From Escherichia coli (GTDB taxonomy: Bacteria > Pseudomonadota > Gammaproteobacteria > Enterobacterales > Enterobacteriaceae), in NCBI RefSeq assembly GCF_003790525.1, contig NZ_CP033635.1: a stretch of 64,000 bases of DNA. One strand, 5' to 3'. Below, in pieces: positions 47,884 to 51,401 of this stretch. Each line of letters starts with the position of its first letter. Within the stretch, counting starts at the first letter, position 1. Under the pieces are notes generated by a model that worked only from the letters and a program-made list of their open reading frames with translations, was not told the DNA's origin and did no database searches. Position numbers and translations under genes: made by a program.

Positions 47884-47990
47884 TTTACATCGGTCTGCCG
47901 CAATGGTCACATCCTAAATGGGTGCGGTTGGGGATCACCAGCCTTGAAGAGTATGCCCGCCACTTTAACTGCGTGATACGGGATTTTTAA
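47880..47990 (+). pseudogene. yecE: 5' fragment of yecE (DUF72) truncated by prophage insertion
   Basis: ATG overlapping the yecD stop encodes [32 protein letters not shown], then diverges and stops after 4 more codons. Confidence 0.6.
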
Positions 47991-48091
47991 AAATCACTAA
48001 AGAACGCCCAAGAGCATGTGTTTTCTTTAGAATAATCAAAGCGTTGGATTGCCATGTCATATGAAAATCGGCAAAGTTCATATGTAACAAA

Positions 48092-48152
48092 GTGTCCCAA
48101 TCATGCCCCAAAATGCCCCACAACAAATATTTTTGCCCCATGCATGCCCCAA
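48092..48152. repeat. Four to five direct repeats of (A/T)TGCCCCA about 120 bp inside the prophage end
   Basis: atgcccca at 48103, 48113, 48144; ttgcccca at 48133; gtgtccca at 48092. Confidence 0.6.
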
Positions 48153-48204
48153 AAAATCACTTTCCCTCACCCTTGACACTGTTTATCTATACAGTTAAAA
48201 ATAA

Positions 48205-48224
48205 CACTGTATATAAACACAGTA
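48205..48224. promoter_or_regulatory. LexA (SOS) box upstream of the dinI-like gene
   Basis: caCTGTatataaacACAGta matches CTGT-N8-ACAG, 14 bp before the start codon. Confidence 0.55.
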
Positions 48225-48237
48225 TAGAGGGACTTTT

Positions 48238-48486
48238 ATGCGTATTGAGATCTGTATCGCTAAAGAAAAATTCAGCAAAATGCCAAAAGGCTCTGTACCT
48301 GCTCTACAACAGGAAATGTCTCGCCGTATCAGAAAACGATATGACGATGTGGAGGTTATAGTAAAATCCGCCAGTAATGACGGACTGACCATTTTAAGAG
48401 CCGTAGATAAAGAAAACGCTCAGAAGTTCATACAGGAAACGCTGCAGGAAGTCTGGGAAACTGCTGATGACTGGTTTTTTCACTAA
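48238..48486 (+). CDS. DinI-family protein (prophage-borne)
   Basis: 82 aa, [14 protein letters not shown]...[16 protein letters not shown], resembles DinI. Confidence 0.8.
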
Positions 48487-48553
48487 TCAGGACGTCAAAT
48501 AAATAACAACTGTAATTATTCTCTCCAAATTAACAATCTCTGTATACATACTC

Positions 48554-48590
48554 AGGCGTGTTCACGCATACAACACGCCTTTCTGATATT
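48554..48590 (+). terminator. Intrinsic terminator downstream of the dinI-like gene
   Basis: aggcgtgtt-loop-aacacgcct stem followed by a T-rich tract. Confidence 0.5.
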
Positions 48591-48868
48591 TAATTGTTTA
48601 CAGAAATATTGCCGAATAAAAATATAAACCATAGTCTTAAAAAATAATAATTCCACTAAAGCTATCCCAGAACAACCAGTACAAATAATAAAAGACATAT
48701 CACAGCAACACTCCACACTGACAGCGCAAAAATAAATGCCGCCTTTGTTATCTTCATATACAAGCAACCTGTCCTGATAATCACCAACTCATGTTTTATT
48801 CTTAACCATTCGTCACAAATACAACAAAAAATAACAGCAGCAGCACCGATATCACAATATAAGATACA

Positions 48869-49324
48869 TTATTCAACACCTGAATCCCCCGCCGCTTCTC
48901 TCCCCTTTATAAAACGCCCCTTCCGGAATCCAGACCGCTGCAGTGCACGACGAAGATGACCGTATACCGTCTTGTCATTCTGCCCCGTCTCTTCTGTAAT
49001 CTCCGCAATACTTAAACCTCTGTAATACCGGTTCAGTACCGCTCTGCGCTCTTCCAGCGTCAACACACCTCCGGCCGCTCTCAGATTCAGCATCGACTTA
49101 TTCAGAATACAGCAGGCCTCTCCGGTAAAAAGAATACGAACAATATCTGTATACTCATCATCACAGAATACAAAATAATATCTGAATGACCTGCCTGACT
49201 GCACCCTTCTTCTGTCTGATATGGCATCTTCTATATATCTGATTCGACTGCTTACGGTTCCAAATATCTCTCGCAGGGCTTTTTCAAAATAAATATCTCT
49301 CGTCGCCAGGATTATATCCAGCAT
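48869..49324 (-). CDS. Small LuxR/GerE-type HTH regulator (possibly sigma-70 region-4-like)
   Basis: 151 aa; C-terminal LTLEERRAVLNRYYRGLSIAEITEETGQNDKTVYGHLRRALQR; SD-like gagg 9 nt upstream of ATG. Confidence 0.55.
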   Translation of the reverse strand: MLDIILATRDIYFEKALREIFGTVSSRIRYIEDAISDRRRVQSGRSFRYYFVFCDDEYTDIVRILFTGEACCILNKSMLNLRAAGGVLTLEERRAVLNRYYRGLSIAEITEETGQNDKTVYGHLRRALQRSGFRKGRFIKGREAAGDSGVE

Positions 49325-49385
49325 CTCTGTACCTCATTATATCCCGGGGGACTCCCCCCGGGACAGATATCTAAATCCTGACCTG

Positions 49386-51002
49386 TCAGAACTCAAAATT
49401 CACACCAGCATTCCACGATGCGGATGACCCACCTGCAGCAACTGCAACTTTTCCTGCCACATTCTCTGTGAAACGGTAGCCCACGCCCACCGCAATGGCC
49501 TGCTCATCACGGTAACCACCAACGGCTGCTGTCGCGTTAAATTTTCCAACACTGTATGGCTGGAAAAGACCTGCCAGTGCCGCGCTCTGGGCTGCACTCT
49601 CCCTTAACTCCTTCCGGTTCTCTTTAATCTGCTCCTGCATATTATTCATTCTCTCTGTCGCCATCTTCTGCCAGGCTTCCGTCAAATCCAGACGATGACT
49701 GTTATTCCTTATCGCTGCTGTATTTGAGGCTATTGCTGCATCCGTCTGCGCCCTGTTCTTCACAAGCACATCGCTGAGATGTTCTGCCTGGCTTTTCGCT
49801 TCTTTAAGGGCATCTCTGTATACACCGCCTATCTCACCACGCAGACTGTCTCCCTCTGCCTTCAGTTCATCACGTACTGCTGTGACCTGACTGTCAGTAT
49901 GAGCACGGGCATCTCTGTATACACCGCCTATCTCACCACGCAGACTGTCTCCCTCTGCCTTCAGTTCATCACGTACTGCTGTGACCTGACTGTCAGTATG
50001 AGCACGGGCATCTCTGTATACACCGCCTATCTCACCACGCAGACTGTCTCCCTCTGCCTTCAGTTCATCACGTACTGCTGTGACCTGACTGTCAGTATGA
50101 GCACGGGCATCTCTGTATACACCACCTATCTCACCACGCAGACTGTCTCCCTCTGCCTTCAGTTCATCACGTACTGCTGTGACCTGACTGTCAGTATGAG
50201 CACGGGCATCTCTGTATACACCACCTATCTCACCACGCAGACTGTCTCCCTCTGCCTTCAGTTCATCACGTACTGCTGTGACCTGACTGTCAGTATGAGC
50301 ACGGGCATCTCTGTATACACCACCTATCTCACCACGCAGACTGTCTCCCTGTGATTTCACTTCAACCCCAAGGTTGCGGGTACGATTATCAAGCTCCACG
50401 ACGAATTCTTTAACAGGGATTGTCTGAGCATTTCCGTCAGCCCTTCCGTCAGCAGTGATTCGGCCTGATGAATCCAGAACAAAATTCTGGCCTTCAACTA
50501 CATTTTTATACAATGATGACAATCCCGATGTTTTATTACTAATTTTAATAAAATCCTCAGCGGTACCACCAGCATTAACAGCGGCGATATAATCATCCTT
50601 GTTTTCTGGTGTGATTATTTTTTCTAGTGATTTTTTTGTATCAACAATGGACTTTATATCTTCTGCTTTTATATTTCTGATGTTTTCGGCTTTTAATGCA
50701 TCTGAGTAGATGGGGTAAGTTAGCAAATCCTGAGCAACAATATGCCTAGTATTCGCAGGAGCTGCTAATATAGCACTCGTAATAGAGGGATTCGGTTTAA
50801 TAGACCCTGTATTAACGCCAATATTAGTATTAATTTGATGAATTTCATCACCTTTTGACATTATTGCTATACCATTATCATACAGAGTAATATTATATTC
50901 ATCTACATTAAAACTCTCTTCTGCCATAACCCCCACAGAGCAACATAACAGCGCACTGGTAACCGCCATTGCCAATACATTCTTTGCCATTATAAATTTC
51001 AT
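49386..51002 (-). CDS. YadA-like trimeric autotransporter adhesin, Eib-like, with tandem-repeat stalk
   Basis: 538 aa; signal peptide [27 protein letters not shown]; 33-aa repeats [34 protein letters not shown]-terminal beta-barrel anchor ending GVNFEF. Confidence 0.7.
49811..50347. repeat. Near-perfect 99-bp tandem repeats (about 5.4 copies) inside the autotransporter gene
   Basis: Direct visual repeat; copies differ only by ccgcc versus ccacc (synonymous). Confidence 0.9.
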
Positions 51003-51401
51003 ATGGTATATCCTGTTAAGAAGATTAAACTGTAACCCCCCCTGAACAAGCAGGCGAGATTCTTTCCCAGGATACCTTTCAGAGTCACCACTGTATTGAT
51101 TTTAACAATCAATACTACTAACATGGGATTATAGGATAAATGCCCCCTGATAAAACAATATGAGCGTTCCTGTCACCATATGTCAGCAGAGCATTCAGAT
51201 ATAGCTGTCAGAATAACCGTTTCCTACATCAGTCATTCATCACAGACTCAATTGTGAATCAGTTCACCTTTTTGCAATTCCTTTATTGATCGAAAGCAGT
51301 TAATCACGGAAATTAATTACCGGAGTGAAAGCATTACTGCATAATAAATATAGATCCTTGCCCCCCTCTGACAGAATTTTCAGAGGGGTTTTTTATCAGT
51401 T

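Follow-up and report, generated by a model that had tools for sequence, protein, structure and literature searches.

What does a prophage carry between its tail fibre genes and the host gene in which it ends, and does such cargo hold biology of a new kind? This question is raised by positions 47976-51401 of a 64,000-nucleotide stretch of Escherichia coli DNA (assembly GCF_003790525.1, contig NZ_CP033635.1), here called the window, where a prophage meets the host gene yecE. The original prediction, made from the letters of the window, placed four non-structural genes in this block: an unknown open reading frame (ORF) of 191 amino acids, a YadA-like autotransporter, a small LuxR-type regulator and an SOS-boxed DinI-like gene on the opposite strand. 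The block is probably the lysogenic-conversion end of a lambdoid prophage in yecE that follows the plan of the P-Eib prophages from E. coli ECOR-9 and is equipped with a self-contained adhesin module. This reading builds on features observed directly in the DNA, namely the order of the genes, their hairpins and LexA boxes, a ribosome-binding site in front of the regulator gene, the mosaic make-up of the adhesin, and its inheritance together with the regulator.

Gene order and resemblance to the P-Eib prophages

The comparison depends on the following genes and hairpins.

48238-48486, plus strand: DinI-like gene, 82 amino acids
48554-48580: terminator hairpin of the dinI gene, a 9-bp stem and then UUUCUGAUAUUU on the plus strand (-12.4 kcal/mol, z -2.2)
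48869-49324, minus strand: gene of a predicted DNA-binding protein of 151 amino acids, with an N-terminal domain at about residues 1-85 and a helix-turn-helix (HTH) at residues 87-131
49341-49364, minus strand: GC-rich 10-bp hairpin CCCGGGGGGA/GUCCCCCGGG with no U-tract (centroid -24.8 kcal/mol)
49386-51002, minus strand: predicted trimeric autotransporter (type Vc) of 538 amino acids, with a signal peptide, a coiled-coil stalk and a YadA anchor
51363-51388: 9-bp hairpin CCCCUCUGA...UCAGAGGGG, directly after the DUF4376 gene (z -2.85)
51402-51977, minus strand: DUF4376 protein of 191 amino acids, homologue of ORF-191, starting one base past the end of the block (51401)

An 'Eib' prophage layout of orf-191, eib and orf-156 in E. 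coli ECOR-9 was reportedly described by Sandt and Hill in 2000. In the GenBank record AF151674 of P-EibC from ECOR-9, the order is orf-191C, stem-loop, eibC, stem-loop, orf-156C, orf-60C and eaaC, and the far end of the record corresponds to the yecE junction and dinI of the window at 88.9% identity. The window and the P-Eib loci are alike in gene order and strands, in the stem-loops flanking the adhesin gene, in the small HTH ORF followed by a tiny membrane ORF, and in the position of dinI by the attachment site (att). They differ in the adhesin passenger, which in the window is unrelated to its counterparts beyond the distal stalk and the anchor, and in eaaC, which the window lacks. The order of tail fibre gene, DUF4376 gene, YadA-anchor gene, ORF-156-like gene, convergent DinI gene and host gene recurs at prfC and btsS. 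Because the P-Eib layout recurs, the block counts as one variant among prophage ends of the Eib type. The expectation that this block would hold undescribed biology has consequently lost its ground, the layout being already on record for P-Eib prophages (AF151674).

The unknown 191-residue ORF does not belong to the cargo. A frame of this length at 49779-50354 (plus strand) lies in the reverse frame of the adhesin repeat array, and its translation is one 33-residue nonsense unit, repeated; it was rejected as a gene, being the antisense reading of a 99-bp array of 5.6 copies. The product of 51402-51977 matches Pfam DUF4376 (PF14301, E 3e-20) and PHROG 1141 'tail fiber protein' (E 1.4e-62) and is 59% identical to ORF-191C of phage P-EibC. 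Judged by these matches, it is a tail-fibre-associated DUF4376 gene and not unknown cargo. The block is made of three real genes (adhesin, HTH, dinI) rather than four, since the 191-residue ORF is either a shadow or an out-of-range gene of a tail fibre family. Of the two proteins that the original prediction left without a family, the regulator is uncharacterised and has only the remote ORF-156 relationship, and the ORF has family assignments.

The predicted trimeric autotransporter

The adhesin gene is divided into the following parts.

50922-51002, minus strand: signal peptide, residues 1-27, from sequence inspection
About 50349-50921, minus strand: head, not a beta-roll, residues 28-218
49808-50364, minus strand: 99-bp tandem repeat array, 5.6 copies by Tandem Repeats Finder with 98% matches, coding for the 33-residue stalk repeat
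49389-49565, minus strand: YadA anchor, residues 480-538

The YadA-like character of the 538-residue protein, proposed from the start, is borne out by its C-terminus. Residues 480-538 match Pfam YadA_anchor (PF03895, E 3.7e-16), and the structure 2lme of the YadA anchor is matched at E 1.9e-17. The protein is nevertheless distinct from YadA, because the NCBIfam model YadA_autotrans covers residues 416-537 only and scores 74 bits against a cut-off of 750. The Sec signal peptide was judged by eye from the N-terminal sequence. The stalk consists of 33-residue (3 x 11) repeats, five full and one partial, over residues 219-416 (starts at 219, 252, 285, 318, 351 and 384), and an Apolipoprotein-type 11/22-mer profile matches residues 235-474. 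The lengths of the relatives step by 33 residues (414, 447, 480, 513; also 472, 505, 538), so the gain and loss of repeats appear to reset the stalk length.

With the YadA-type adhesins, including Cla and Yal, the protein shares the YadA anchor, a coiled-coil stalk with YxD-type motifs, domain shuffling and variation of repeat number. Unlike them, it carries no left-handed beta-roll head and no neck motif, and its head falls in phrog_9547 only. A profile search found no match to YadA_head or YadA_stalk in the adhesin, and neither the beta-roll head nor the neck motif was found. The head of about 190 residues matches phrog_9547 alone (E 1e-16), a family of unknown function; searches with the head in PDB sequences (E up to 10), Pfam and NCBIfam gave no match, and no relative turned up among IMG/VR contigs. 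When phage and plasmid records were searched with the adhesin by tblastn, the stalk and anchor alone were matched. In the abundant relatives (452-548 residues), the same repeats and anchor bear a beta-roll head and a neck of the canonical YadA kind. The relatives that share the stalk carry SVALG...NVxSVGAG...RRIINVSDG, and a 452-residue relative with the canonical YadA head was found on at least 1000 contigs. The head of the window protein is present in 6 of the 5426 complete E. coli genomes in which all genome counts given here were made. The GC content is 0.37 in the head versus 0.53 in the repeats, and 0.37-0.38 over the head and its 250-bp leader. As far as sequence comparison tells, the adhesin is a head swap onto a common chassis of stalk and anchor. 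A similar diversification is reported for EibG-like adhesins, with the Cla and Yal lineages (bioRxiv 10.64898/2025.12.25.695649).

In TUM1886, the orthologous adhesin (L001 7487-9103) is given by RefSeq as 513 residues from an internal ATG, with the signal peptide lost. The 538-residue frame is also open there (tblastn, 95% identity across 538 residues).

The likeness to the P-Eib loci could also mean that the autotransporter is a true Eib protein, which would confer non-immune binding of IgG/IgA Fc and serum resistance, and that the block is one more eib locus. The locus architecture is the same as that of eibC, close relatives are named 'immunoglobulin-binding protein' in databases, and in the anchor and the distal stalk the identity to EibA, EibC, EibD and EibE is 39-62%. 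The similarity, however, is confined to the C-terminal 90-206 residues, which resemble YadA as well as these Eib proteins at 39-62% identity. Identity to EibC is 41% over the C-terminal 206 residues; EibC and EibD can be aligned to residues 354-538 (39-41%), and EibA and EibE to residues 421-513 (57-59%). The head and the 33-residue repeats have no counterpart in EibA, EibC, EibD or EibE, and the database names were assigned automatically. Among the EibG-like adhesins, ClaA and ClaB, whose similarity is limited, show no binding of IgG Fc, and Fc binding depends on particular stalk residues (bioRxiv 10.64898/2025.12.25.695649). The immunoglobulin binding of the Eib proteins is unlikely to extend to the 538-residue adhesin because the passenger is unrelated to theirs, and the example of ClaA and ClaB is a reason not to assume it. 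A further eib locus is a minor possibility.

The 151-residue protein and the small ORFs after it

Within the 61 bp that separate the adhesin gene from the HTH gene, the hairpin at 49341-49364 is followed by GAGG and then the HTH start codon. In the encoded protein of 151 residues, residues 87-130 match Sigma70_r4_2 (E 4e-7). With its LuxR-like HTH, the label of a small LuxR-type regulator was about right. Sigma region 2 was not found in the protein, and region 4 alone matches (residues 80-130), far under the family cut-offs; an extracytoplasmic function (ECF) sigma factor was ruled out as an assignment because there is no sigma region 2.

Homologues were sought in a word-indexed search over 5.8 billion proteins and in an exhaustive HMMER search over 1.84 billion representatives, and no diverged full-length homologue was found in either. 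The searches returned copies of the protein itself (88-100% identical, mostly 94-100%) and fragments, plus HTH-only matches at E of about 3e-4. Homology to ORF-156 was therefore established by profile comparison. Against an alignment of 20 ORF-156 relatives, hhalign gives a probability of 95% and E 3.4e-8 over 129 columns, across both domains. The protein shares the start ILATRxxYxE with the ORF-156 family, and its pairwise identity to ORF-156C is 22% (E 4e-5). By this profile match it qualifies as a remote member of the ORF-156 family.

The structure was modelled with AlphaFold2 from the ORF-156 alignment (predicted local distance difference test score, pLDDT, 78.5; predicted template modelling score 0.74), and an alignment-free run (pLDDT 37) was discarded. 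In the model, strands 1-5 and helices 1-3 make up a beta-alpha domain of about residues 1-85, and a four-helix HTH comes after it. Foldseek gives RcsB at E 3.6e-3 and a template modelling (TM) score of 0.41, and the best full-length matches are RcsB and EvgA. In AFDB50, the matches are a few E. coli proteins of about 150-220 residues (one is from Salmonella) with TM near 0.7, some of them labelled 'LuxR family'. Like the NarL/FixJ regulators (RcsB, EvgA, NarL) and GerE, the protein has a C-terminal four-helix HTH of the LuxR/GerE type, an N-terminal beta-alpha domain and an invariant aspartate, which is D55 at the end of strand 3 and is invariant across the superfamily. Unlike these regulators, it has an N-terminal domain of about 85 residues without helices 4 and 5, and the acidic pair after strand 1 is not conserved. 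No Response_reg profile match was found in the protein, and no histidine kinase gene in the block or in any related locus read. The model is tentatively read as a truncated pseudo-receiver fused to a LuxR/sigma-r4 HTH.

PapX, MrpJ and MatA/EcpR are regulators encoded at the 3′ end of adhesin operons which cross-regulate motility. The 151-residue protein would resemble them as a small DNA-binding protein whose gene lies at the 3′ end of the adhesin gene or beside it and moves with it; the comparison is a working analogy only. In the literature searched, there was no functional study of an ORF-156-type protein and nothing relevant on ORF-156/ORF-191 or ibrA/ibrB.

Two candidate ORFs stand downstream of the HTH gene.

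48802-48879, minus strand: candidate small hydrophobic ORF of 25 amino acids with a GTG start, unannotated, GGGGGA 5 nucleotides upstream
48662-48757, minus strand: candidate small hydrophobic ORF of 31 amino acids from ATG, MKITKAAFIFALSVWSVAVICLLLFVLVVLG, unannotated

The 25-residue candidate overlaps the HTH stop codon by 11 nucleotides and takes the place of ORF-60C of P-EibC. The 31-residue candidate falls within the segment 48650-49814, which is at least 99% identical in all adhesin/HTH contexts. A small ORF after the HTH gene may be a genuine small membrane protein of the module. At the matching position, small transmembrane ORFs were seen at L002 3043-3225, L011 4525-4653 and L018 from 4517, with the conserved membrane segment GAMCFMLFVWLGGVV in common (ORF-60C family). 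The candidates in the window are unrelated in sequence to the ORF-60C-type ORFs of three ORF-156-type prophage loci.

The proximity of the HTH gene and a small membrane ORF could also mean that they form a sigma/anti-sigma-like or tethered-regulator pair, which responds to the status of the envelope or the adhesin. The HTH resembles sigma-70 region 4, and in ECF sigma/anti-sigma pairs the stop codon of one gene typically overlaps the start codon of the next. Both here and, unrelated in sequence, in three ORF-156-type prophage loci, a short hydrophobic ORF with a single membrane pass overlaps the HTH stop codon or comes right after it. The protein has no sigma region 2, however, and so cannot be a sigma factor, and the 25-residue ORF has only about 5 residues outside its membrane segment. 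The small ORFs are unannotated, their copies are at least 99% identical, so that the substitution pattern is uninformative, and they are missing after the ORF-156 relatives in plasmid and island contexts. A pair of this kind is improbable, and the 151-residue protein is better taken as a regulator within the adhesin module of a P-Eib-like prophage end.

Co-inheritance and the variable slot

At least 80% of the 3.6-kb block is held by 5 of the 5426 genomes, among them TUM1886, which has the full-length block at yecE at 98% identity. The 151-residue gene occurs in 183 genomes at 288 places, up to 6 per genome and always at 99% identity or more. The 3′ end of the adhesin gene is directly beside it in at least 162 of the 183 carriers, and in those exceptions for which the surroundings were read, IS421 or ISKpn26 interrupts the locus. 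The conserved travelling unit consists of 48650-49814 and 51254-51481. Relatives of ORF-156 also stand downstream of YadA-anchor genes in a plasmid-like context.

The adhesin/regulator pair was also seen outside prophages. In SCU-115 (L004 5782-8896), it is flanked by insertion sequences and lies beside the iucA/aerobactin operon, and in 2009C-3133 (L006 5001-7953) it is located in a transketolase/phosphotransferase system islet. Of the DUF4376 gene (ORF-191), the non-prophage islands with the pair keep only the final 27 codons, along with the hairpin, and for this reason they are taken as fossil prophage ends in which the pair is intact.

The content between the tail fibre genes and dinI differs among related phages. 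In the yecE prophage PPyecE_EH1910, the gene of the type III secretion effector nleC (L025 1207-2193) stands between the tail fibre gene and dinI. The slot of P-EibC holds eibC, orf-156C, orf-60C and eaaC, and in phi80 the tail fibre gene directly adjoins the LexA-boxed dinL. These comparisons support the view that the stretch between the tail fibre genes and attR is a variable cargo ('moron') slot. The presence of nleC in PPyecE_EH1910 versus adhesin and regulator in the window is a direct example of cargo exchanged at one site. The cargo slot of the original prediction is thereby retained as far as its content varies (nleC; eibC with eaaC), and narrowed as regards dinI, which is a conserved end gene. 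The comparison of the same locus in yecE prophages, which had been proposed along with it, found the locus variable, and its proteins are not all characterised.

The original prediction also considered that such a slot may carry defence cargo. In this case, the block would provide anti-phage defence or superinfection exclusion, for example by receptor masking together with a regulator switching a defence gene. The position between tail fibre and att is a known hotspot, and phi80 cor lies nearby. A search with PADLOC, however, found no anti-phage defence match for the four proteins beyond coiled-coil noise, and the adhesin/HTH pair is intact in phage-free fossil loci, which indicates a function at the level of the host. 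Defence cargo is very improbable. That the YadA-like protein is a virion component (side fibre) instead of a cell-surface protein is hardly credible: it does come directly after the tail fibre genes on the same strand, and some lytic Salmonella phages have weak relatives (30-34% over the stalk) annotated as 'tail protein' or 'agglutinating adhesin', but the protein begins with a Sec signal peptide and ends in a beta-barrel anchor of the outer-membrane type, hairpins lie between its gene and the tail genes, and the gene is intact where the tail genes are gone.

The DinI-like gene and its SOS boxes

The promoter region of the DinI-like gene contains the following sites.

48173-48222, plus strand: promoter region, TTGACA-N18-AAAAAT with 10/12 matches
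48179-48194: LexA box 1 (CTGT-N8-ACAG), CTGTTTATCTATACAG, overlapping the promoter-like site
48207-48222: LexA box 2 (CTGT-N8-ACAG), CTGTATATAAACACAG, overlapping the promoter-like site

The assignment of an SOS-boxed DinI-like gene on the opposite strand was correct. The product belongs to PHROG 189 (E 2.8e-27). It is called DinI-like and not an orthologue of chromosomal DinI, because its score against the NCBIfam DinI model NF007893 is 71.3 bits, under the equivalog cut-off of 111 bits. It is 83% identical to the P-EibC copy and 62% identical to the copy of the prfC prophage. In the whole window, 4 boxes of the form CTGT-N8-ACAG were observed versus 0.96 expected, and the two in front of the dinI-like gene are 28 bp apart. 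The boxes and their overlap with the promoter-like site place the gene, as a prediction, under a LexA-controlled promoter. In phi80, the annotated LexA site sits at the equivalent place before dinL.

The prophage DinI-family genes (phi80 dinL, dinI of yecE prophages) are alike in their size of about 80 residues, in the upstream LexA box and in adjoining both att and the tail fibre end; phi80 dinL differs in having one annotated LexA box versus the two in this block. The gene is, on this comparative evidence, a conserved end gene of the phage group and not variable cargo. The terminator hairpin at 48554-48580 separates the convergent dinI and HTH transcription units. The DinI-like protein would be induced by DNA damage, modulate RecA filaments and in this way tune prophage induction.

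Proposed function of the module and points against it

In the lysogen, the adhesin would be made, exported by Sec and trimerised, with its YadA-type barrel inserted in the outer membrane. It would display a coiled-coil stalk, whose length would be reset by the gain and loss of 33-residue repeats, and the swap of the head for a non-beta-roll domain would alter what the cell sticks to. The 151-residue protein may be co-transcribed with the adhesin at a lower level, through the hairpin without a U-tract. It would act as a phosphorylation-independent regulator of the LuxR/sigma-r4 type dedicated to the adhesin, either through feedback on the promoter region of the adhesin gene or, in the manner of PapX, MrpJ and MatA, by tuning genes of the host, for example those for motility.

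The candidate site of such feedback lies upstream of the adhesin gene.

51254-51335, minus strand: conserved non-coding block of 82 bp upstream of the adhesin gene

This 82-bp block is near-invariant among loci with differing flanks and adhesin heads (five-locus alignment), and it stands upstream of YadA-like genes at 91.7-93.5% identity in most of 370 matching genomes. It is possibly a promoter or an operator. The block holds a near-palindrome, CGGTAATTAATTTCCG, at 51307-51322. The palindrome CGGAAATTAATTACCG was demoted to a weak lead as an operator, because one of its arms is not the same in the closest relatives and 32 of 100 shuffles yield a single match by chance. The hairpin at 51363-51388 has a T-run on its plus strand side only.

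Several points weigh against the proposed module. One arm of the near-palindrome varies, with one base different in the closest relatives L001 (TUM1886) and L005. A promoter scan found no strong sigma-70 promoter in the 82-bp block, and over the region 8 promoter-like sites were found versus 8.8 expected from shuffles; since there is no excess over the shuffles, no promoter is claimed for the adhesin. Orphan relatives of ORF-156 (L007-L010 4001-4495; L021 2658-3152) come without an adhesin gene; one set is found past the hpa operon, 3 kb from a PerC-like gene, and another beside PapB-like and Hha-like genes. The ORF-156 family is not strictly adhesin-bound, because some of its members stand alone. 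The tip of the autotransporter is called adhesin by position only, because the head has no known fold assignment. Finally, the proposed read-through of the hairpin, the regulator's target and any effect on motility are drawn by analogy.

Setting of the prophage end

The flanking genes and sites are as follows.

44021-44761: host gene yebC
45235-47007: host gene aspS
47302-47883: yecD, the last host gene ahead of the yecE fragment
47882-47975, plus strand: truncated 5′ end of host yecE, 32 codons, with the prophage/host junction (attR side) at its end
About 47957-47977, no strand applicable: probable att core, a 21-bp duplication, by homology to a PPyecE_EH1910 feature
51992-53662, minus strand: collagen-like side tail fibre gene stf, directly followed by the DUF4376 gene
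53721-57626, minus strand: tail tip gene J, 1301 amino acids

The host genes yebC, nudB, aspS and yecD reach 47883, and the 5′ fragment of yecE that comes next is interrupted at about 47976, as the original prediction had it. The equivalent of this fragment in TUM1886 is marked in RefSeq as an incomplete coding sequence with the C-terminus missing. The 21-bp stretch at 47957-47977, which is probably the att core, was mapped from the feature 'duplication due to insertion' of PPyecE_EH1910 (L025 343-363); the other prophage end lies outside the window. From the block onward, tail genes on the minus strand fill the window to its end. The GC content passes from about 0.54 in the host genes to 0.33-0.46 across most of the block, with 0.51-0.53 in the adhesin repeats and stalk. 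An Rfam scan of 47500-52000 at E up to 1 gave no match.

In phi80 (JX871397; L024 4981-5577), a pseudogene fragment of the yecE 5′ end is followed by a LexA box and then by dinL. The phi80 stretch is 86.6% identical to the window junction (47900-48113), and the phi80 record labels the part homologous to the yecE fragment as an N-terminal DUF72/UPF0759 fragment. By this homology, the right end of phi80 looks as if it came from a yecE-integrated ancestor with imprecise excision.

The tail genes contain repeats of their own. In stf, collagen-like Gly-X-Y arrays of 45-bp repeats lie at 52267-52414 (3.3 copies) and 52705-53197 (11.3 copies), and such arrays are already known from the prophage fibres of pathogenic E. 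coli (PMC3368898). In J, a 58-residue coiled-coil-like segment is tandemly duplicated (residues 888-1003; window 54618-54965).

Meaning for prophage-borne adhesins

The block is a variant of a known arrangement in which the regulator family and the adhesin head are uncharacterised. A bolder extension, considered unlikely, would see a portable cassette of three parts, found only in Escherichia: the adhesin gene, the HTH gene with its truncated receiver, and one or more of the tiny membrane ORFs. The ORF-156-superfamily protein would then couple display to host transcription, for example by shutting off motility or other adhesins, the peptide would tether or antagonise it, and the phrog_9547 head would be a new binding domain. 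As a P-Eib-like prophage end, the block puts a rare head-swapped adhesin variant on record; its value is incremental and lies in sharper annotation, not in a new kind of system.

When carried by prophages, adhesins of the YadA type (Eib, Cla) have effects on resistance to serum, on adherence in chains and on the virulence of Shiga toxin-producing E. coli negative for the locus of enterocyte effacement and of other E. coli. The regulation of Eib/Cla-type adhesins is called complex and unresolved in the papers on it. The small HTH protein of the ORF-156 superfamily is a constant companion of YadA-type adhesin genes in prophages, in fossil ends by aerobactin genes and in a plasmid-like context. 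As this constant companion, for which the literature searched holds no functional study, the 151-residue protein is an obvious candidate for the missing regulator.

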